Both the position numbers and the translations under genes were made by a program. This document shows, piece after piece, positions 15,673-63,920 of a stretch of DNA of 64,000 nucleotides. Position 1 is the first letter of the stretch. Each line of letters begins with the position of its first letter. The stretch is from Escherichia coli. GTDB taxonomy: Bacteria; Pseudomonadota; Gammaproteobacteria; Enterobacterales; Enterobacteriaceae. Below the pieces are notes generated by a model that saw only the letters and a program-made list of their open reading frames with translations, was not told the DNA's origin and searched no databases. Where the stretch lies: the NCBI GenBank assembly GCA_902500055.1, contig GCA_902500055.1_4131.1; one strand, written 5' to 3'.

Positions 15673-15729
15673 ATCCTATATAAGTAATATATAGTATTTA
15701 GTGCTATGAAATAGATTCGAACTTATTTG

Positions 15730-15803
15730 TGCCCCAATTCCGACTCGAACGGAAAAATCTCACGATTACAAATCGTGTGCATTACCAATTTTGCTATTGA
15801 GGC
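15730..15803 (-). tRNA. tRNA-Thr (anticodon TGT)
   Basis: Hand-folded cloverleaf: acceptor GCCTCAA/TTGGGGC, anticodon stem CACGA/TCGTG with loop TTTGTAA, T-arm TTCCG-TTCGAGT-CGGAA. Confidence 0.65.
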
Positions 15804-15977
15804 TAATTTAGGAAGTAAGATAACCAACAAGTCTCCATACTCTTTCGCATTGAGGGGAGGTCATCTTACTGTATTATTTATCATTTTTATTTTTGCTTAT
15901 TTCGACGCATTAACTTGATTAAAGCAAGTGTAGGCATAGGTTGTGCTGAACAAAGTACTTCAAGCTGTTTGGCAGTC

Positions 15978-16064
<87 letters not shown>

Positions 16065-16066
16065 TA

Positions 16067-16192
<126 letters not shown>

Positions 16193-16211
16193 GCATACTC
16201 GAAGTACCTCT

Positions 16212-16317
<106 letters not shown>

Positions 16318-16361
16318 AATTGCTTTATAAGCTACTGAATCGGGAATCACAACCTCCCCAT

Positions 16362-16616
<255 letters not shown>

Positions 16617-16625
16617 TAATACCCG

Positions 16626-17027
16626 CTAGTAGTTTAAGTCTGCGGCGTTGAATACACCAAGTGAAGTCTTACCACGTAGTTTAGGTGAAAGGACATACTT
16701 TGTCAATTTCTTTTTACCGTACCAGTGATTGAATTCGTCTTCAGTAACATGTGGGTTCTGGAAATCGTATTCACGTTTCTTATGAAGTTTTTTAGCTTGT
16801 TCTGCAATCTTAGTTCGTTGATCTTCTGGAATGTCGAATGTATTGTTACGTTTGCACCATTCGTGCACTAATGCTTCCAGAAGGAACTGTTCAGTTTCTT
16901 TGACTAGAGTGATTTTAGTCAAGCCTTTTTCGATGTTCATATAATCATCGACATATCCATTCCAAATAACAATCTCTGGATTGCCGTCAATCTCTTGAAG
17001 CATTTTGATCAAGTCATTCTTTTTCAT
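16626..17027 (-). CDS. hypothetical protein
   Basis: 133 aa; N-terminus MKKNDLIKMLQ paralogous to 16398..16613. Confidence 0.5.
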   Translation of the reverse strand: MKKNDLIKMLQEIDGNPEIVIWNGYVDDYMNIEKGLTKITLVKETEQFLLEALVHEWCKRNNTFDIPEDQRTKIAEQAKKLHKKREYDFQNPHVTEDEFNHWYGKKKLTKYVLSPKLRGKTSLGVFNAADLNY

Positions 17028-17035
17028 TTAAATTC

Positions 17036-17347
<312 letters not shown>

Positions 17348-17397
17348 TTAATTAACAGTTAATCGCACCACCTATTGTGCTACAGAGTCATAATTAT

Positions 17398-18102
17398 TTA
17401 TAAGCCATGTCTTTTCAAAAATCTAGCAAACACATTTTTGGAAGCACCATAACTTTCATATATACTAACTTTTTTCTCACCATTATTCAAACGTTGTTTG
17501 ATATCTTCTATGTTATCTTCTAAACGTTTTACGTTTGCAAATTTCTTAGATGGTATATTATTTTTGGTTCTATAATTCAGTACTGAACCTGAACTAATAT
17601 TCATTATTTTAGCAATTTCAGTATCTAATAAACCTTGGTTAATATATTCTTTTACCTTTTCATAATCAACAGATGTTTCACCACCCTTTGTATTAGAAGG
17701 AGGCTTGACCATTTTTTGTGAACACTCAACACTACAATATTTTGTATATGATTTCACTTTAGTATGCCTACGGGTAAATTCCATATTACAACAAGCACAT
17801 ACAAATGAATCATATCGTGCTTGCACACCATTCTTATGTGTTTTATAACGATGTTCATCAACATGAAGTATTTGCAAATTTGACAAATCATCATTTGTGA
17901 AATCATTATCAATGTGGTCTGCTTCTTCAGACTCAGTTAAATATCTACCTTCTTGTACTGCTAATAGATATCTGGCATATTGAGTACTGCTTCTATCAGT
18001 TGGAGAATTATAAAGTATTACAGTTCTTCTACCTTCAGGGTTTATCTGTATATACCCATTCTCCCAATCATTACTGTATGGATATTCTAATTTTATTTTC
18101 AT
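17398..18102 (-). CDS. HNH homing endonuclease
   Basis: EEADHIDNDFTNDDLSNLQILHVDEH HNH core with basic HTH-like C-terminus. Confidence 0.7.
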   Translation of the reverse strand: MKIKLEYPYSNDWENGYIQINPEGRRTVILYNSPTDRSSTQYARYLLAVQEGRYLTESEEADHIDNDFTNDDLSNLQILHVDEHRYKTHKNGVQARYDSFVCACCNMEFTRRHTKVKSYTKYCSVECSQKMVKPPSNTKGGETSVDYEKVKEYINQGLLDTEIAKIMNISSGSVLNYRTKNNIPSKKFANVKRLEDNIEDIKQRLNNGEKKVSIYESYGASKNVFARFLKRHGL

Positions 18103-18433
18103 TATTTTATTTCAAAGTTTGTGAGCCATCTGTGAGTCGAACACAGTACCTAACGATTCGTATAATCTATAGTTTTCACTATAGTACGGACTATATCATC
18201 ATCCCATAGGGATGCCGGACGCTAATGATGTATTACACAGTAAGATCGTACTGTACCATCTAGTCTCTGCACCTTCCCAATACGCTTATTGGGCTTGGCT
18301 CAGGATTGTCATCACCATTACGTGTTAAGATTTCCCTGAATTCATCCAGTTTTTCAATCACCATTACTGATGAAAGTCACCATTGTCGATGAGTCGTTTG
18401 CTCTAACCACCGTGAGCTAATGGCCCGATTTAG

Positions 18434-18686
<253 letters not shown>

Positions 18687-18695
18687 TACTGAAAA

Positions 18696-19085
<390 letters not shown>

Positions 19086-19163
19086 ATCACCAACTTTAAT
19101 TAAAAAAAATGGATGGTGACGCTTTTAAACGTCGCTGTCAATTCAGCTTTATAACCACCCGTT

Positions 19164-19373
19164 TTAACTTACCTTTCGGCTACCTTGACGTGGGGCGTAC
19201 AGGCTACTAAAAGCAACTTCTGTAAACATATTTCCACGCCTTACCCTTTTAAATAAAAGTCCATCCGGTTTTCCAGTTTGATGAAGGACTGTCACCTCTA
19301 GTTTAAACCTGCTAGTCAAGTAATAATTGCCTATCGTCCAATTATCAAACCCGTCTAGGTTAACATTCACCAC
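19164..19373 (-). CDS. hypothetical protein
   Basis: 69 aa ORF in a GC-richer, possibly non-coding stretch. Confidence 0.3.
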   Translation of the reverse strand: MVNVNLDGFDNWTIGNYYLTSRFKLEVTVLHQTGKPDGLLFKRVRRGNMFTEVAFSSLYAPRQGSRKVS

Positions 19374-19455
19374 TTCCTAGAGTACCAGAGATCTTGTTCT
19401 GGATTGCATCGACGTAACTTACACCATATACGTCTGATTGTGGAATTCATTTTAT

Positions 19456-19486
<31 letters not shown>

Positions 19487-19525
19487 ACAAATCTGGACGT
19501 TCATCTTTAAACATATTAATATCCT

Positions 19526-19543
19526 CAGTACTGAATTATTTAG

Positions 19544-19548
<5 letters not shown>
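19526..19548 (-). repeat. promoter-like repeat copy 2
   Basis: cagtactgaattatttagtcaag; minus strand TTGACT -35. Confidence 0.5.
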
Positions 19549-19956
<408 letters not shown>

Positions 19957-19968
19957 GCTTTTTTTTAA

Positions 19969-20129
<161 letters not shown>

Positions 20130-20133
<4 letters not shown>

Positions 20134-20294
20134 ATTCGTACCATTAGTTCAATTAAGTACTTTTTATATTCTGGGTCGTTGATAAGTTTATCATACAGAT
20201 GCAACTTTGAAATGAATTCCCAATGATACTTTAGCCATTTACCAATACCTGCATATCTAAAATTAATATCATTCATCCATTCTTCATGCGTCAT
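20130..20294 (-). CDS. MTHEEW small protein, subfamily A
   Basis: 54 aa MTHEEWMNDINFRYAGIGKWLKYHWEF...MVRI; stop overlaps next start in ATGA. Confidence 0.5.
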
Positions 20295-20455
20295 ATTCGT
20301 ACCATTATTTCAATAAAGAACCACGGATACACTTCATGATTTATAAGTTTATCGTATTCTGCTGGGTCTGATATAATCTCCCAATGATATTTTCGCCAAT
20401 TACCTATGCCGGAGTATCTGAACTTTAGTTCACTTAACCATTCTTCATGGGTCAT
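20291..20455 (-). CDS. MTHEEW small protein, subfamily A
   Basis: 54 aa MTHEEWLSELKFRYSGIGNWRKYHWEI...MVRI; ATGA overlap with next gene. Confidence 0.5.
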   Translation of the reverse strand: MTHEEWLSELKFRYSGIGNWRKYHWEIISDPAEYDKLINHEVYPWFFIEIMVRI

Positions 20456-20489
20456 GGTTTTCCCTTTTAATTAATGGAATATAATTGTA

Positions 20490-21032
<543 letters not shown>

Positions 21033-21046
21033 AATATTATATTTTA

Positions 21047-21118
21047 TAAAGGGCCGGAGAATCGAACTCCGATTGGATTCTTAGAAGGAATCTGTTTTAT
21101 CCGTTAAACTAGCCCCTC
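21047..21118 (-). tRNA. tRNA-Arg (anticodon TCT)
   Basis: Hand-folded: D-stem GTTT/AAAC, anticodon stem GATTC/GAATC with loop CTTCTAA, T-arm CGGAG-TTCGATT-CTCCG; acceptor needs two G-U pairs. Confidence 0.55.
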
Positions 21119-21128
21119 AGTACTAATA

Positions 21129-21157
21129 ATTATATCACATCTTTTTGTGCTGTCCCA
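21129..21157 (-). promoter_or_regulatory. extended -10 promoter candidate upstream of tRNA-Arg
   Basis: Minus strand TGTGATATAAT about 10 nt upstream of the tRNA 5' end. Confidence 0.35.
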
Positions 21158-21161
21158 TTAT

Positions 21162-21458
21162 TTATGATTCGGTTTGGGGATTAAATTTGATAAATTCATC
21201 TTTATGTTCATCTTCGATTGCAATATCTTCTACATCTTCAGGCCAGATTGTGGTGTCATCTTGGAAGAAGCGATAATTATCGAATTCTGCACTACGTGTT
21301 CTTCCCTGTTTCCAACCAATAGTGCAGTCATGATATACATCACCACTACGTGTACGAATACTAATTGAGTCTTGTGTTTCATAAAGAACATCAATGCGTG
21401 TGTCACGACTTGTGTTGAATTTTTCAAAATGCATAATATTATCCTCATTTAGAACCAA
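21162..21458 (-). CDS. hypothetical protein
   Basis: 98 aa ORF. Confidence 0.5.
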   Translation of the reverse strand: MVLNEDNIMHFEKFNTSRDTRIDVLYETQDSISIRTRSGDVYHDCTIGWKQGRTRSAEFDNYRFFQDDTTIWPEDVEDIAIEDEHKDEFIKFNPQTES

Positions 21459-21528
21459 TGATAATCATTATATAATGAATTAATCATTTATGCAAGTGCT
21501 TTAGATACACTAACGCAATTTTCTATAT

Positions 21529-21708
21529 TCATTGTTTGATTGTTTTTCTAAATGCCAGTTCGCATATAAACCAGGGTTTTCTGGTATCCAAAACATATGA
21601 CCTGAAAAGATTTTCATCTCTTAAGATGTCATAGTGTACCTGACGAATACCATTCCCAAAGAAATCATGTTCTTTATGTTGTTTGGACATCCATTCTTTG
21701 TGTGTCAT
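21529..21708 (-). CDS. MTHEEW small protein, subfamily B
   Basis: 59 aa MTHKEWMSKQHKEHDFFGNGIRQVHYDILRDENLFRSYVLDTRKPWFICELAFRKTIKQ; below ORF-track cut-off. Confidence 0.5.
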   Translation of the reverse strand: MTHKEWMSKQHKEHDFFGNGIRQVHYDILRDENLFRSYVLDTRKPWFICELAFRKTIKQ

Positions 21709-21709
21709 T

Positions 21710-22045
<336 letters not shown>

Positions 22046-30419: not shown

Positions 30420-30950
30420 TTATTCAAGTATAGTAATTTCAATTAAACGAATTTCGATAAACTCGTTTTCAGTTTCCCATGACGTGCCAAATTTCTTTTC
30501 AAGTTCAGATTTCACATCACTTTTAAATTTTCCCATAGTATTAGGAATAATTTGTTTGGTTAATTTGTCGTAACCACAATAAAACATAGGTTTCTCCCTT
30601 CGAGATATTAGCTGAACAAAATCTTTTGGATATGCAGGTATGTTATGCATCACTTCATGAATACACTCAGTACTTGAATCTTGTACTTTGTACATTACAT
30701 TAAGTTTACCTCTGAAATTTGCGGTCATATCAACAATAGTTCCTTTACCCGATTTAAGTAAAGTTCCATTCTTTGAATGAGAGCAATAAAATACCTCATC
30801 ACCAATATTAGGATAATACAAATTAAATTCTAATTCAGATTTTACAGCCAGACGTTTGAAACTTTCTGCACGTTTTATATAAGTTTGGTGTTTGTTTATG
30901 TTCAAAAGAATATATCTCGTAGTAAGTGTGATATAACTGGCATAGTCCAT
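30420..30950 (-). CDS. hypothetical protein
   Basis: 176 aa ORF; start overlaps the methyltransferase 3' end. Confidence 0.5.
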   Translation of the reverse strand: MDYASYITLTTRYILLNINKHQTYIKRAESFKRLAVKSELEFNLYYPNIGDEVFYCSHSKNGTLLKSGKGTIVDMTANFRGKLNVMYKVQDSSTECIHEVMHNIPAYPKDFVQLISRREKPMFYCGYDKLTKQIIPNTMGKFKSDVKSELEKKFGTSWETENEFIEIRLIEITILE

Positions 30951-31762
30951 CCATTCCCAAGCATTTTGTATGCTTGTGTTGAACTACTAACTTTGAAGTA
31001 GTTTACATCAATTCCTTGCAACATGCAACACTCTTGTACTGTTAAATGACGATAGTCCACATTTCGCTTACCATGTTCAATAAGGAAATCCCTATCGATA
31101 TCAGGTTCTTTGAAAACAATTTGTCTTCTTGATTTATTAAAGTACTGGTTACAATCACCACCTTTAAAATAGTTAGCATCTATACAGTACGAAGCGGTTC
31201 TGTCAGTGTACCAACCATCTTCAATAATATCTTGAAGTTTAGGTGCATTGGATAATGCAGGTGGTATAAAAAGCTTATCAGTACTGTACCAGTAATATCT
31301 CTGCCTGAAGTGAGGCGTATAATGCTGGGAGTTTATCAGTACTGGTGCAACACCAATCTCTTTGTTGAATATATCCAATGATTCTTTTTTCATTTTAACA
31401 TTCTCAAACAAAAAATTCAAATTGGGATTTAAACTTTTTATGTGATTGAAAATGTCCATCATTGTGTAAAATAACATACTACGTGGATCTTGTAATCCTA
31501 ATTGTTTCCCAGCCGTTGATAGTCCTTGACATGGACTACCCCCGATAAGTAAATCAATTTTATCCCACTCAATATCCCATTCTCTCCATTTAGTTACATC
31601 ACCCAATTGGGTGATATCAGGAAAGTTAGCTTGGGATTCAGCTATTGCGTACTTGTCAATTTCGGATGAATAATATTTTTCAACAGGGATGCCAGCATCT
31701 TTTAATGCCATGTATCCCACACTCATCCCATTAAAAAGAGATAGTACTCGGATAGGTTTCAT
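30902..31762 (-). CDS. DNA (cytosine-5)-methyltransferase
   Basis: Motif I LFNGMSVGY, motif IV GGSPCQGLS, motif VI ENV, C-terminal LTVQECCMLQG and YKMLGNGWTMPV. Confidence 0.8.
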   Translation of the reverse strand: MKPIRVLSLFNGMSVGYMALKDAGIPVEKYYSSEIDKYAIAESQANFPDITQLGDVTKWREWDIEWDKIDLLIGGSPCQGLSTAGKQLGLQDPRSMLFYTMMDIFNHIKSLNPNLNFLFENVKMKKESLDIFNKEIGVAPVLINSQHYTPHFRQRYYWYSTDKLFIPPALSNAPKLQDIIEDGWYTDRTASYCIDANYFKGGDCNQYFNKSRRQIVFKEPDIDRDFLIEHGKRNVDYRHLTVQECCMLQGIDVNYFKVSSSTQAYKMLGNGWTMPVISHLLRDIFF

Positions 31763-35664: not shown

Positions 35665-35684
35665 ATTTCATTTCCTTATGTGAT

Positions 35685-35709
35685 AAAAGCCTCCATGATG
35701 GAGGCTTTT
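35685..35709 (-). terminator. rho-independent terminator
   Basis: aaaagcctccat-ga-tggaggctttt hairpin with flanking A/T runs. Confidence 0.65.
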
Positions 35710-35717
35710 ATATTTAC

Positions 35718-36149: not shown

Positions 36150-36344
36150 TTATTCCTTATTTAGATTGCTAAAAATACGAAGATTGCGGTTTGCTTTAAA
36201 CTGTTTCAAATCACCAAATCTATCATCAACGATGAAAGTTGCTGATTTCTTTGACTGACATATTGTACAAATCAACATACCTTGTATTGTATACTCAGTT
36301 GAGCAATTTGTACAGTACTTTTTTTCATAAAGTTCAGTACTCAT
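36150..36344 (-). CDS. hypothetical zinc-ribbon protein
   Basis: CTNC...CTIC paired CxxC motifs. Confidence 0.45.
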   Translation of the reverse strand: MSTELYEKKYCTNCSTEYTIQGMLICTICQSKKSATFIVDDRFGDLKQFKANRNLRIFSNLNKE

Positions 36345-36676
36345 AAAACCTTCACATCAGTACGTTTTTCTCTTTGTTCTTTTTTAACCTCATCAGTTCT
36401 AGTATCTTCTAATTGTAACACAACTTCTTTTAGAATGTCAACATCAATTGTTGCTTCTACATATTGATAGTCGTTTACACCAAAAACATACTTTACTGCA
36501 ACCCATACACGGTTATACCATTTTAAAAAAGGATTTAAACGCATACTTATCAGACATTGACCAAGTTTATCATCTCCATATTCCTCTGTCAAGTCAAATT
36601 GTGCAATGTGAACGCAATGCTCCATTTTATCGCCACAAGAACAACGTAAAATATACTCTTTACTATCTTCACTCAT
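36341..36676 (-). CDS. hypothetical Cys-rich protein
   Basis: CSCGDKMEHCVH motif. Confidence 0.5.
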   Translation of the reverse strand: MSEDSKEYILRCSCGDKMEHCVHIAQFDLTEEYGDDKLGQCLISMRLNPFLKWYNRVWVAVKYVFGVNDYQYVEATIDVDILKEVVLQLEDTRTDEVKKEQREKRTDVKVL

Positions 36677-37254: not shown

Positions 37255-37485
37255 TTATTCCTTTGTATATGCATATGGTAAAAATAAAACCTCTGCATTA
37301 GGAATGCATTGTGCCAATCCTTCAACAATAGATTTGTTTTTATTACATTGCCAAACTTTAGTAATTTTATGTCTAAATACTTTTTTATCAACGACAATCC
37401 AGTACATGTCCATTTTAACAGTACTGTTATCAGATGGTGTTAGTAAAGTATCGATGTCATATGTATCAAAGATTTTGTCGTTCAT
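37255..37485 (-). CDS. hypothetical protein
   Basis: 76 aa ORF. Confidence 0.4.
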   Translation of the reverse strand: MNDKIFDTYDIDTLLTPSDNSTVKMDMYWIVVDKKVFRHKITKVWQCNKNKSIVEGLAQCIPNAEVLFLPYAYTKE

Positions 37486-37747
37486 ATAATCTCCTAATAA
37501 AATATTCTCGATTCTCTCTTATATACCCAGATACACAGTTAGTTGTGGCTTGGTTAGTGAATGAAATCTCACTATTGGACACGCCATTTGCATCACACAA
37601 AGGACATATTCCCATGTACTTGGGGGTCGGGTAGGTGTCCAATTTGTATTTTCCATTACATACCATGTACTGCTGTGGCAATACATCTAATATTATTTCA
37701 TATTCTTCATCAAACACCTTGAAGCATACCCAACATTTACCCATCAT
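37466..37747 (-). CDS. hypothetical zinc-binding protein
   Basis: CWVC...CNGK...CPLC cysteine pairs. Confidence 0.45.
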   Translation of the reverse strand: MMGKCWVCFKVFDEEYEIILDVLPQQYMVCNGKYKLDTYPTPKYMGICPLCDANGVSNSEISFTNQATTNCVSGYIRENREYFIRRLYERQNL

Positions 37748-38228
37748 AGTTTTCCTTTAACACAGTTCTTATATATTCGAATGTTTTAACAAACCAATCA
37801 TGTTCGTCGGATACATCTACAACTTTACCACCATATACATAGTAATGGTAAAAAGGCAACTTGCTTTTTCTTAATCTTTCGGCTAACTCTGGATTTTGAA
37901 TTATTTTAGCACAAATAGCATCTTGAATAATAGAAATACAATCATCCGTCATTTCAATTCGATCATGCATATATTTGTTAGCGGCTGCTTTTGCTGCTGC
38001 ACCAGATACTTTTCTAAGGTCATCATGTTTTTGCCCAGTTAAAAACCAAAAGTAAAATGTTTCAACTGAAGGGAACCAACCATATGGTTCAAGTGTGAAG
38101 CTATGCGAAGAAAAGTTAGATAGATCTCTACCTAACTTCGTTCTGGCTTTACTATAAATGTTAATATGTCGGTATCCATCATCAGTAGGGTCAATGAAGT
38201 TAAATGACTCTTCTGGGAATTCAAACAT
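37737..38228 (-). CDS. NADAR-domain (YbiA-like) protein
   Basis: HINIYSKARTKLGRDLSNFSSHSF...SVETFYFWFL resembles the YbiA pattern FYS...FSNF...TSEHYFQ. Confidence 0.45.
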   Translation of the reverse strand: MFEFPEESFNFIDPTDDGYRHINIYSKARTKLGRDLSNFSSHSFTLEPYGWFPSVETFYFWFLTGQKHDDLRKVSGAAAKAAANKYMHDRIEMTDDCISIIQDAICAKIIQNPELAERLRKSKLPFYHYYVYGGKVVDVSDEHDWFVKTFEYIRTVLKENYDG

Positions 38229-39788: not shown

Positions 39789-40343
39789 TTATAGTTTAAT
39801 TGATTCTTGAATACCAGTATCCATTGCTTTCTTGGTACGTGTATCAGATACTACTGTACAAAGGTGTTCAATATTTTCACTTGGAAACGTATTCGAATCA
39901 AGAATTTTGGAATTCCAGAAGCCTTTGCGGAACTTAGCATAATCAGTACACTGGTCAATTTTCATTTTCTGAAGATTGTTGAACTTTGTACGTCCTGTTT
40001 CAATTGTCACCATCAATTCCTGATAAATTTTAGGATCAAGATTTGGAACCTGTTGTTGAATCTGTGACATTACAAACTTCTGGTCAACACCTTCACGCCC
40101 TTTAAAGTATGATTCAATCGTTTCTTTCAACGCATCTTTATACTTATCGGCTACTTGAACCTTATCTTGAATAGTAAGAGTATAATTGCTAAGTTGACTT
40201 TCTGATGCATCATAATACTTTTTAATGTTTCCTTCAAACTCAACTGCACGATCATGTGCACCAACATACATACTAATAGAACCAAACACCATTAGTACGA
40301 TAACTACCAAAATACCAATTAACGCAAGGAGTTTACCATTCAT
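39789..40343 (-). CDS. LemA-like membrane protein (tentative)
   Basis: N-terminal TM plus C-terminal IETGRTKFNNLQKMKIDQCTDYAKFRKGFWNS resembling the LemA C-terminal region. Confidence 0.4.
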   Translation of the reverse strand: MNGKLLALIGILVVIVLMVFGSISMYVGAHDRAVEFEGNIKKYYDASESQLSNYTLTIQDKVQVADKYKDALKETIESYFKGREGVDQKFVMSQIQQQVPNLDPKIYQELMVTIETGRTKFNNLQKMKIDQCTDYAKFRKGFWNSKILDSNTFPSENIEHLCTVVSDTRTKKAMDTGIQESIKL

Positions 40344-41437: not shown

Positions 41438-42127
41438 TTAATCCATTTTAAGCTTGTTTAGACAGAATGAAATCTGGATTGCTTCACGTGCTGCATCAAA
41501 CAGTGGGTGATGTAACTCCAACCCATTAATCCCACACGTATTTGCATATGTGATAAATTTATCCAACTGTACCGAAACGATTTCATCCATTTCAATACGA
41601 GCTTCTTCATTCAATAAACGTTTCAATGTGCGTGCATTTTCAGGTGCATCATACTTCCACAACTCACCAGCGTTCATTAGTTTTAAATGGTTTGCTTGTA
41701 AAATACTACAATCGAAGTTACATCCGTTGCCCCAGACTGAATGAGGAACTTCTTCACCATAATCATTGTAACGTAATTCTTTCCAGAAATCAACAATACT
41801 ACTGTATGCAAAAAATCGTCGTGATTGACCATTCGGTCCATACAGTTCAGGTGCTTTGAGTTTCATAGTACTGGCAACTTCAGAATATGCATTAGGGTAT
41901 TCTTTCTGACATGTATTCATCCAAAAATCCATTGCACCTGCGTCTGATTTTAAACCAGCAGCAACTTGATCCTGGTATGGTAATTTAATATATAAGAACT
42001 GACGAATGTCATTTTCAGGTTTACTTGGAACTACTACTGCTGCGTAATTTGGGATAATAATATCATAACCGGAAAGTTCAGGTGTTCCAAGAGCTTCAAT
42101 ATCAACACTAATATGACGACGTTTCAT
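41438..42127 (-). CDS. dexA: DEDD-family 3'-5' exonuclease (DexA-like)
   Basis: Exo I-like ISVDIEALGT and Exo III-like HHPLFDAAREA; size matches T4 DexA. Confidence 0.6.
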   Translation of the reverse strand: MKRRHISVDIEALGTPELSGYDIIIPNYAAVVVPSKPENDIRQFLYIKLPYQDQVAAGLKSDAGAMDFWMNTCQKEYPNAYSEVASTMKLKAPELYGPNGQSRRFFAYSSIVDFWKELRYNDYGEEVPHSVWGNGCNFDCSILQANHLKLMNAGELWKYDAPENARTLKRLLNEEARIEMDEIVSVQLDKFITYANTCGINGLELHHPLFDAAREAIQISFCLNKLKMD

Positions 42128-42149: not shown

Positions 42150-42193
42150 TTAAAAAGAGTGCGTTTTCAATAAGATTATATTAAAAACGCACT
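42150..42193 (-). terminator. hairpin terminator candidate
   Basis: 11-bp stem gagtgcgtttt/aaaacgcactc with a long loop, followed by TTTTT on the minus strand. Confidence 0.35.
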
Positions 42194-42206
42194 CATATGT
42201 CAACTA

Positions 42207-43343
42207 TTACTTGTTAGCTTTTTCGGCAATTTCACGAAGAGTGTCTTCCAGTTCATAGGAAAGTTGTGCAATTTCCTGTTTAGCACGTTCACGTTCCAAT
42301 TTACCTTTTTTCTCTTCTTCAATAACTGCTTCAATACTGTCAATCATCGTTTTATGTACATTACGCAAGGTTTTAATATCCACAATACCACGGTTGTTTG
42401 CCTTTGCTGCGTCCAACATATTTGCTGCAACCATTTTAGAGTTAGTTTCCAAAAGACGGTTTGTCTCATTATCAATTAGATTGCCTAGTTCATTATCCTT
42501 ACGTTGACGCTCGGAAATTAACTGTTCAGCCAATTGAGACTTCCATGCTGGAATAACAACAGATTTTAAATCTTCAAACTTAGAAACAGTGTTCAAGTTT
42601 ACTTTTTTCATACTCATCAAACGTGGACCACTTAGCTCGCACATCATGATAAGACGACGAATCTTATCTTCTTGTTTAGAAAGTGCTTCACAAATCATCT
42701 TTTGCTCTTGAATAGCAAAAGAGTCTACATTTTTGTCTGCTTGCATTTCTAATAATAATGCATCTTGTGTTTTAGTTACTTCTTCTAAACCAACTAATGT
42801 ATCACGTAATTCAAACAAATATTCTTTGTTTTCATTATATGCTTTATCAAGCCATTCACATTCTCCGTGCTGGCGATTAATACCAGTTTGAAGAGTTTTC
42901 ATAATTTCGTCAATTTGCTCTTTACTGTTTTTGTACTGATCACCTACTTTCTGTTGAGCATTAACAAAGAATTTCTTAATACGACCAACAATTGATTTAT
43001 CTTCTTGAAGACTGTCAATATCAACTGCACGAGTCAACGTAAGAATTGTGGTGATTGATTTACCAAACTCGGTATTGTCATCCGTTACATTAACTTTAGA
43101 CATAATTTCATCAGCCAAACGCCCAACAGCAGCACCAGCAGTTGTACCAACAGTATTGATGTTTTGAACTGTTAGAGACATAGTATTTCCCTTAACATCT
43201 TTCAGTACTGGTAGTGATTTTGTAGTTTGGTTAAAAATATCACTTGCATCAATTGTATGACCTTTAGACGCAGTTTTAGTAGTGCGTTTTGCTGATTTAG
43301 CTGCGGTGGATGCTTTTTTAGGATTGATTTCTTTCTCGGACAT
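42207..43343 (-). CDS. hypothetical coiled-coil protein
   Basis: 378 aa, basic Lys/Ala/Thr-rich N-terminus then long helical region. Confidence 0.6.
   Translation of the reverse strand: MSEKEINPKKASTAAKSAKRTTKTASKGHTIDASDIFNQTTKSLPVLKDVKGNTMSLTVQNINTVGTTAGAAVGRLADEIMSKVNVTDDNTEFGKSITTILTLTRAVDIDSLQEDKSIVGRIKKFFVNAQQKVGDQYKNSKEQIDEIMKTLQTGINRQHGECEWLDKAYNENKEYLFELRDTLVGLEEVTKTQDALLLEMQADKNVDSFAIQEQKMICEALSKQEDKIRRLIMMCELSGPRLMSMKKVNLNTVSKFEDLKSVVIPAWKSQLAEQLISERQRKDNELGNLIDNETNRLLETNSKMVAANMLDAAKANNRGIVDIKTLRNVHKTMIDSIEAVIEEEKKGKLERERAKQEIAQLSYELEDTLREIAEKANK

Positions 43344-59246: not shown

Positions 59247-60309
<1,063 letters not shown>

Positions 60310-62617: not shown

Positions 62618-63920
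<1,303 letters not shown>

Follow-up and report, generated by a model that had tools for sequence, protein, structure and literature searches.

What does a 163-residue phage protein do when part of its sequence looks like a NADAR enzyme and no standard family model recognizes it? A gene on the minus strand of a 64,000-nucleotide stretch of DNA (Escherichia coli assembly GCA_902500055.1, contig GCA_902500055.1_4131.1; hereafter the window) raises this question. A preliminary description had placed a possible NADAR/YbiA-like protein at 37737-38228, with no strand given. The open reading frame (ORF) lies exactly there, on the minus strand, begins with ATG and encodes 163 amino acids (aa). We find that the encoded protein almost certainly belongs to the NADAR superfamily, as a member of a large clade that is essentially confined to phages. 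On balance we favor the reading that it is a phage NADAR-fold ADP-ribosyl N-glycohydrolase serving in counter-defence.

A conserved gene of Asteriusvirus jumbo phages

The gene belongs to a known phage:

37737-38228, minus strand: complete coding sequence of the NADAR-like protein, 163 aa plus stop, corresponding to EO157G_0730 (BBM61662.1) of phage SP27.

Its ATG, at 38228, is the first start codon past the upstream in-frame stop. Over the surrounding 3.5 kb the window agrees at 100% identity with Escherichia phage SP27 (LC494302.1), an Asteriusvirus jumbo phage of 347 kb in which EO157G_0730 is labelled "hypothetical protein". Another 34 phage records match this 3.5-kb stretch; counting SP27, coverage reaches 80% or more of its length in 34 of the 35. 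All 35 close relatives carry the NADAR-like gene, which is called hypothetical wherever annotation was read. Comparison with phage 121Q gave a nonsynonymous divergence (dN) of 0.005 against a synonymous divergence (dS) of 0.188 (dN/dS ~0.03), indicating that the gene is under strong purifying selection.

Family profiles uncover a NADAR fold

The signature that drew attention to this protein lies in its N-terminal half, where residues 21-61 contain H21-INIYSK-x3-LGRDLSNFS...SVETFYFW; the counterpart in E. coli YbiA is IINFYST..YGDFSNFA...TSEHYFQ. Taken alone, the sequence finds little. Single-sequence scans matched no Pfam family at E ≤ 10 and none in NCBIfam, phmmer found no match in the PDB, and PADLOC, run on the protein and on 28 homologues, returned nothing, its DarG models included. 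The PF08719 gathering threshold of 35.1 bits was not reached (homologue P0012 reaches 14.5 bits and P0027 12.7), and neither was that of PF08010 at 36 bits, where the protein itself is unmatched and the best clade members score 20-27 bits. PHROGs assigns the protein to phrog_652 (E 5e-45), a family with no function attached.

Family profiles gave a different answer. A profile built from the 28 homologues and run against 177,635 PDB sequences (E ≤ 10) returned three matches, every one a NADAR: 8bau from Phytophthora (6e-5), 2b3w, which is E. coli YbiA (3.8e-4), and 8bat, the DarG1-type NADAR of Geobacter lovleyi (0.61). Profile-profile alignment with hhalign gave YbiA a probability of 92.4% with the 28-sequence profile and 94.4% with a 75-sequence clade profile. 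The same 75-member alignment matched the T4 gp30.3/AdfN family at 97.6% (E 3e-12); the match spans 144 columns, essentially the full length, with the key Glu and His in register. T4 gp30.3 on its own found no NADAR in the PDB, so it cannot serve as a bridge to solved structures.

Structure prediction agrees with the profiles. An AlphaFold2 model computed from the alignment has a mean predicted local distance difference test (pLDDT) score of 90.5, and DSSP assigns strands 129-132 and 135-138 to a C-terminal beta-hairpin. In the viral structure library BFVD, uncharacterised phage proteins from the same clade come nearest, followed by many "NADAR domain-containing" proteins of giant viruses and phages. 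The NADAR relationship is thus visible only through family profiles or structure.

These results bear on what had first been proposed. The N-terminal YbiA/NADAR signature is real and beyond chance, given the NADAR-only PDB matches and the hhalign probabilities. The absence of a NADAR profile hit, named at the outset as evidence against the assignment, is what the single-sequence Pfam scan returned and what the family profiles overturned. Membership in the superfamily held; membership in PF08719 or the YbiA type did not, with no Pfam match and a Tyr where YbiA has its Glu. A fortuitous resemblance hiding an unrelated fold and function could draw on the blank single-sequence scans of Pfam, NCBIfam, PADLOC and the PDB; a chance motif match was rejected on the NADAR-only profile and profile-profile matches, and this explanation is very unlikely on current evidence. 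Homology to the NADAR superfamily is strongly supported by profile, profile-profile, fold and, as described below, domain-fusion evidence.

An active site with a conserved histidine and a missing lysine

Which NADAR residues does the clade keep? We counted column conservation over 75 divergent single-domain clade members. Residue equivalences come from sequence mapping, and residue roles from published work (PMC11543638, PMC11125620, PMC12945103). Five elements stand out:

38112-38180, minus strand: clade motif D17-G-x2-H21-I-N23-I-Y25-S26-K ... T30-x-L-G33-R-x-L36-S37-N38-F39, from conservation and alignment.
38061-38063, minus strand: E56, the conserved NADAR glutamate, in register in both hidden Markov model and hhalign alignments.
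38040-38042, minus strand: L63, in the column of the lost diphosphate-binding Lys, placed by three independent alignments.
37977-38003, minus strand: G76-A-A-A79-K80-A-A-A83-N84, the "GxxAKxxGR" loop, with K80 at 37989-37991.
37839-37847, minus strand: H128-Y129-Y130, opening the C-terminal beta-hairpin, placed by hhalign and DSSP strands.

N23, G33, F52, E56, G76, H128 and Y130 are invariant. Residues conserved at 90% or more include D17, G18, H21, Y25, S26, L36, S37, N38 and F39 in the N-terminal half and K80, G83, K108, Y129 and W145 further on.

The N-terminal motif contains strand beta1 and the superfamily-conserved Ser of "LSNF". N23 and G33 occur in 75 of 75 members, N38 in 74 and H21 in 73, and the motif is in register with YbiA "IINFYS..G.FSNF" and with the G. 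lovleyi DarG1 segment "ISSKSKTTLGVDLSAF". E56 is the equivalent of PnNADAR E43, E. coli C7 E88 and T4 AdfN E36, a Glu that positions the distal ribose (PMC11543638, PMC12945103). Two hallmarks of the superfamily (PMC12945103 Fig. 5D) are therefore both present: the Ser (S37, 71/75) and the Glu (E56, 75/75).

A third hallmark is gone. Seven residues after the Glu (Glu+7), other NADARs carry a Lys (PnNADAR K50, E. coli C7 K95, SCO5665 K94, T4 K43) that binds diphosphate and adenine and is one of just three residues conserved across the superfamily (PMC11543638, PMC11125620, PMC12945103). Mutation of K95 in the E. coli C7 NADAR strongly impaired hydrolysis of ADP-ribosylated guanine (guanine-ADPr) (PMC11543638), and K43A weakens T4 AdfN (PMC11825919). 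Across the 75 clade members this column holds Leu in 27, Gly in 15, Ser in 13, Ala in 5 and Lys in 3, so that 72 lack the Lys. Candidate basic residues that might take its place in three dimensions are R34, K27, K108, K135 and R90. Conservation of the catalytic residues, which the preliminary description had raised as a check, is accordingly partial: S37, E56, K80 and H128 are kept and the Glu+7 Lys is lost.

The glycine-rich loop is retained in most of the clade and rebuilt in the subclade of our protein. G76 is present in 75 of 75 members, K80 in 74, G83 in 71 (Ala here) and Arg or Lys at position 84 in 55 (Asn here). The loop matches "AVAKKLGR" of 8bau and "GxxAKxxG" of gp30.3, and K80 corresponds to PnNADAR K75 and to E. 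coli C7 K115, which is required for DarT1 rescue in vivo and is a proposed DNA contact (PMC11543638). In the Asteriusvirus/RaK2 subclade, the usual "AKxxGRxLxxxDW" is replaced by "AKAAANKYMHDR".

At the other end of the site, H128 and Y130 are each found in 75 of 75 members and Y129 in 74. hhalign pairs the clade's "LPFxHYY" with "avLkHSI" of the gp30.3 family, which sets H128 at His123 of T4 AdfN. When the YbiA alignment is extended, H128 falls two residues ahead of the canonical Glu column, the position at which the literature puts D171 of DarG1, and an invariant Tyr, Y130, replaces Glu125 of YbiA/PnNADAR. The last-strand residue follows a subfamily rule: Glu in YbiA, Asp in BC4488/DarG1 and His in phage gp30.3 (PMC11543638, PMC11125620). 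On this mapping the clade is a "His-type" NADAR like gp30.3, though its N-terminal IN.YS segment is more YbiA-like.

A site that has lost part of its ligand contacts could in principle bind without cutting. The protein might be a catalytically weakened binder of an ADP-ribosylated ligand or host protein, working as a sponge, sensor or inhibitor. There is a precedent in the sponges for NAD-derived signals with which phages are well known to counter host defence, and the losses fit: the Glu+7 Lys throughout the clade, joined in the SP27 subclade by the GR-loop Arg. We consider such a binder improbable. E56, H128, Y130, K80, H21 and N23 show little or no variation over at least 75 divergent members, which is more typical of an active site than of a binding surface; H128 occupies the place that the catalytic His or Asp has in active NADARs; and the enzyme fusions described next suggest a role in a reaction series.

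A large phage clade linked to ADP-ribose chemistry

How widespread is this domain, and with what does it travel? An exhaustive profile search gave at least 2,092 cluster representatives at 50% identity (E ≤ 1e-3), 643 of them at E ≤ 1e-30. tblastn located the gene in 547 phage records, none of which annotates it. Among them are RaK2/121Q-type jumbo phages and jumbo phages of Serratia, Erwinia, Xanthomonas and Ralstonia, many ~130-160-kb phages of Salmonella, Klebsiella, Dickeya and E. coli that are Ackermannviridae-like in appearance, and ~157-kb Vibrio phages; no T4-like phage appears among the matches listed. All genomic contexts examined for clade members are phage-like, and the distribution is essentially phage-only.

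Additional domains occur in roughly half of the 150 top representatives. The partners counted in 84 long members are DUF4326 (24), YAcAr/YpsA SLOG (18, overlapping DprA-like matches) and Macro (6), along with DUF488-N3a (6), an Rv2179c-like exoribonuclease (2), Metallophos (1) and a PF08719 NADAR (1). Typical architectures are Macro+DUF4326+domain, DUF4326+domain+SLOG and NADAR+domain+DUF4326. The last is exemplified by P0103, a metagenomic protein of 1,415 aa with a PF08719 NADAR at 10-143 (E 1e-20), an HYY-clade domain at 548-698 and DUF4326 at 1185-1274. Since a canonical NADAR and an HYY-clade domain occur there in one polypeptide, the two are distinct types, with non-redundant specificities implied.

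Neighbouring genes point the same way in a minority of loci. Of 80 viral loci, 7 have an ADP-ribosylglycohydrolase gene (PF03747, E 4e-33) at 0-2.7 kb from the clade gene: L011, L013-L016 and L019, all from Serratia BF-like jumbo phages, and L074. In the metagenomic phage locus L005 an ADP-ribosyltransferase toxin-like gene adjoins the clade gene. When the 80 loci were clustered by neighbourhood, most of the recurrent neighbours had no Pfam match and probably reflect lineage synteny, not functional linkage. Together, the fusions and neighbouring genes of the clade tie the domain to ADP-ribose chemistry.

Combinations of this kind have been described before. Iyer, Burroughs, Aravind and co-workers reported SLOG/Macro/NADAR/DUF4326 combinations in jumbo phages and giant viruses and saw in them systems that process NAD+/ADP-ribose (PMC7824862 section 3.4.8; PMC9503650 section 3.7.4). 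The architectures found here match the fusion types in those sections, so these specialists, with their sensitive profiles, have very probably already counted the clade as NADAR. Within those two sections, neither a clade-specific description (loss of the Lys, HYY motif) nor an experiment is given.

The same context bears on a housekeeping role. A YbiA-like N-glycosidase acting on riboflavin-pathway intermediates or other ribosyl compounds free of ADP-ribose would be expected from the likeness to YbiA first proposed, and we give it hardly any probability: Tyr replaces the last-strand Glu and a His precedes it by two residues, riboflavin genes are missing from the gene context, the fusion partners are ADP-ribose- or NAD-linked and not flavin-linked, and the clade is essentially phage-only.

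Candidate substrates and a possible role in counter-defence

What, then, would the enzyme cleave? ADP-ribose was removed from guanine N2 in DNA and RNA by every NADAR subfamily assayed (PMC11125620, PMC12945103): representatives of all four subtypes hydrolysed guanine-ADPr in vitro in one study (PMC11125620), as did every NADAR assayed in the other (PMC12945103), in which the D/H-type enzymes were guanosine-specific. T4 gp30.3/AdfN removes DarT1 guanine ADP-ribosylation (PMC11825919, PMC11125620), and three unrelated phage NADARs neutralised DarTG1 (PMC11825919).

From these precedents and the residue mapping we infer hydrolase activity, a substrate and a counter-defence role for the SP27 protein. 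It would be a stand-alone, core-only NADAR-fold enzyme from a large phage-borne clade sister to the T4 gp30.3/AdfN family. In such an enzyme an ADP-ribose adduct would have its distal ribose positioned by E56 and K80, and H128, an AdfN-type His backed by the invariant Y130, would take the role played by Glu or Asp in other NADARs. The bond cleaved would run from ribose C1'' to a base nitrogen; the likeliest such bond would be that of guanine-N2-ADPr, set on phage DNA by host DarT1-type ADP-ribosyltransferases, and its cleavage would rescue phage replication. The parts of this model differ in strength. That the protein acts on some ADP-ribose-containing substrate is probable. Reversal of DarT1 guanine ADP-ribosylation as counter-defence is plausible by likeness to AdfN (PMC11825919); as the specific physiological target, DarT1-type guanine-ADPr on DNA is the leading candidate, but less likely than not.

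Several observations weigh against the glycohydrolase reading. The Glu+7 Lys is missing throughout the clade. In the SP27 subclade the equivalents of PnNADAR G78, R79 and W89 are changed as well, the pyrophosphate-binding Arg (R79) becoming Asn and "DW" becoming "DR". With the Lys lost and R79 and W89 changed, the mode of ADP-ribose binding must differ. PF08719, PF08010, NCBIfam and the PADLOC DarG models all leave the protein unmatched. The fusion partners SLOG, Macro and DUF4326 have been taken by Iyer, Burroughs and Aravind as a sign of soluble ADP-ribose derivatives and not of DNA adducts (PMC9503650). Among the ten genes nearest the NADAR-like gene, no DarT, ADP-ribosyltransferase (ART), Macro or other NAD-linked gene adjoins it, and the best 25 of the 43 Pfam families matched in the window contain no DarT, Macro, ART, SLOG, DUF4326, ARG or NAD-salvage domain. 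Finally, a literature search turned up no biochemical or genetic data on any clade member.

Together, the loss of the Lys, the changed loop and the fusions to Macro, SLOG and DUF4326 make a soluble ADP-ribose derivative or a different adduct a serious alternative, and the soluble derivative is the main rival substrate. On this account the protein is a NADAR-fold hydrolase of a soluble ADP-ribose derivative or NAD-derived nucleotide, not of modified DNA, and in other phages the domain works in series with Macro, SLOG and DUF4326. Candidate substrates are immune signals or toxins such as isomers of cyclic ADP-ribose (cADPR), His-ADPR and ADPr-1''P, or by-products of NAD-dependent RNA repair. The repeated fusions to DUF4326, YAcAr/YpsA SLOG, Macro, DUF488-N3a and Metallophos favor it, as do the pairing with a canonical NADAR in P0103, with its implied division of specificities, and the remodelled diphosphate and adenine contacts (K50 equivalent lost; R79 and W89 equivalents changed). 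Yet no NADAR has so far been shown to cleave a soluble immune signal, and each phage NADAR assayed acts on guanine-ADPr DNA and counters DarTG1 (PMC11825919, PMC11125620). K80 is kept, the equivalent of the DarT1-rescue residue K115 (PMC11543638). The SP27 protein also stands alone, with no Macro, SLOG or DUF4326 partner among the best 25 of the 43 window families. We regard a soluble substrate as unlikely, though far from negligible.

A related and similarly doubtful view, to which we would give only slightly more weight, is that the HYY clade as a whole is a functionally distinct NADAR type, with a rebuilt ADP-ribose pocket and a target other than DarT1 guanine-ADPr. Signs of the rebuilding would be the missing Glu+7 Lys, the new invariant residues D17, H21, N23 and Y130, and the change from GR...DW to AN...DR in the Asteriusvirus-like members. 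The clade might instead act on ADP-ribosylated RNA or a different ADP-ribosylated base, or on a soluble immune signal derived from NAD.

Gene neighbourhood and other features of the window

Small genes that all run in one direction form a long array around the NADAR-like gene. About eleven co-directional genes, the NADAR-like gene among them, stand between terminator-like hairpins at 39779-39761 (minus strand) and 35683-35711. The stop of the upstream gene lies 2 nucleotides ahead of the ATG of the NADAR-like gene, whose 3' end is overlapped by the start of the downstream gene:

37466-37747, minus strand: 93-aa protein with two Cys pairs (CWVC...CPLC), zinc-ribbon-like; phrog_35738, function unknown.

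The start/stop overlap of these two genes suggests translational coupling. A promoter scan did not rise clearly over background (53 against 42.6 ± 5.8 in shuffles).

The Pfam survey of the window covered 107 ORFs and matched 43 families, of which the strongest 25 form the results. Those 25 include topoisomerase II, clamp loader, RNase H, dihydrofolate reductase (DHFR), IF3, TelA, a C5 methylase and an Rv2179c-like exoribonuclease. The window holds no second NADAR-like copy, and by tblastn the ADP-ribosylglycohydrolase gene of relatives is absent from it. The ten nearest genes fall in unknown-function PHROGs with no meaningful Pfam match. With so bland a gene neighbourhood, the local context argues neither for nor against any particular substrate.

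Two genes close to the NADAR-like gene carry a structural label in PHROGs:

36341-36676, minus strand: "virion structural protein" (phrog_12660).
39789-40343, minus strand: "virion structural protein" (phrog_1383).

NADAR and Macro proteins have been proposed as often packaged in myovirus virions (Iyer et al.).

Four genes upstream, in the direction of transcription, lies an annotated exonuclease, and beyond it a promoter-like element and a TelA-like gene:

41438-42127, minus strand: "exonuclease" by the annotation of the related phage JP4.
42157-42203, minus strand: sequence with 12 of 12 matches to the sigma-70 consensus TTGACA-17-TATAAT, between the TelA-like and exonuclease genes.
42207-43343, minus strand: TelA-like toxic-anion-resistance protein, placed through window Pfam matches and JP4 annotation.

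The exonuclease gene is probably the ORF that matches the Rv2179c-like 3'-5' exoribonuclease family PF16473 (E 1e-8, a match that was not localised). This family, fused to the clade domain in 2 of the 84 multidomain relatives, may have a functional link to it. The element at 42157-42203 overlaps a terminator-like hairpin with a 16-bp stem and looks like a strong host-type early promoter or a regulatory element.

Elsewhere in the window are several recognizable genes:

15729-22023, minus strand: five tRNA genes (Thr-tgt, Asn-gtt, Ser-gct, Arg-tct, Gly-tcc) among small ORFs; the matching region of JP4 holds another tRNA set and an HNH endonuclease.
30902-31762, minus strand: C5 cytosine DNA methylase, placed through window Pfam matches and JP4 annotation.
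59806-60309, minus strand: homologue of translation initiation factor IF3, phmmer 1.2e-20 against E. coli InfC, with Pfam IF3_N and IF3_C.
62618-63046, minus strand: RNase H, 9e-34 against E. coli RnhA.
63043-63564, minus strand: DHFR, 2e-13 against FolA.

RNase H and DHFR are part of the same leftward gene array. The Pfam survey also places Sigma70_r3-like, PIF1-like helicase, NT5C and KTSC domains within the window, at unlocalised positions.

Implications

Phage NADARs were shown to erase DarT1 DNA ADP-ribosylation just in 2024-2025, and the phage types assayed so far are T4 gp30.3, T5-like and Vequintavirinae. The HYY clade would add a fourth, much larger one that is annotated everywhere as "hypothetical", is missed by the standard models of Pfam, NCBIfam and PADLOC, and has no function in PHROGs. 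Less expected is that so large a clade lacks the diphosphate Lys and stands outside all standard annotation models. To annotate it would be to assign a function to a gene carried by many jumbo, Ackermannviridae-like and Vibrio phages, therapy candidates among them. A clade that does without a supposedly needed diphosphate residue would mean either that NADAR catalysis tolerates the loss or that a new substrate class has entered the NAD/ADP-ribose arms race. If the clade were indeed a distinct type, hundreds of large phages would carry a new enzymatic activity for counter-defence.

Comparison with known NADAR families

Where does the protein fit among named systems? PF08719 and PF08010 both fail to match it and the conserved Lys is lacking, which makes it a divergent NADAR and a member of neither named family.

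Like the clade, the DarG1 antitoxins (BC4488 family; 8BAT, E. coli C7) place their catalytic residue two positions before the canonical Glu column (D171; H128 here). DarG1 and the NADAR-like protein also share the K115-equivalent Lys (K80) and an N-terminal segment of the form "SK..T.LG..LS.F". Unlike DarG1, our protein has His for Asp, no equivalent of K95, no PADLOC match and no adjacent DarT among its ten nearest genes, and the extra N-terminal helix and sheets of DarG1 (PMC12945103) do not fit in 163 aa. A DarG1-type antitoxin was rejected for the missing DarT neighbour, the His in place of Asp, and a length too short for the N-terminal extension.

Canonical NADAR/YbiA proteins (PF08719; 2B3W, and 8BAU with ADP-ribose) have in common with it "IN.YS", "SNF", the Glu and the helix-4 Lys (K108), and their "AKxxGR" loop is kept in most clade members. 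Proteins of this PF08719 type are carried by T5-like phages, as tblastn with a canonical NADAR showed. Identity to our protein is ~17%, however, PF08719 does not match, and the column of the last-strand Glu125 holds Tyr. Of the ADP-ribose contacts of PnNADAR, K50 and R93 are unconserved in the clade, and R79 and W89 are additionally changed in the SP27 subclade. A YbiA-type member, or riboflavin N-glycosidase, was rejected for its lack of the last-strand Glu, where Y130 stands.

By sequence, the protein is closest to T4 gp30.3/AdfN (PF08010). It differs from gp30.3 in lacking the equivalent of Lys K43, which there forms a catalytic pair with E36; the clade carries the N-terminal DG..HIN.YSK motif and the HYY triad, both absent from gp30.3, and is often fused to DUF4326, SLOG or Macro, and its hydrolase activity is predicted from sequence. 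What the two share is the overall plan: both are phage-borne, core-only NADAR domains of ~150-160 aa with LSNF, the Glu (E36 in gp30.3, E56 here) and a "GxxAKxxG" loop, and in both an invariant His opens the last hairpin, H123 in T4 AdfN and H128 in the NADAR-like protein.

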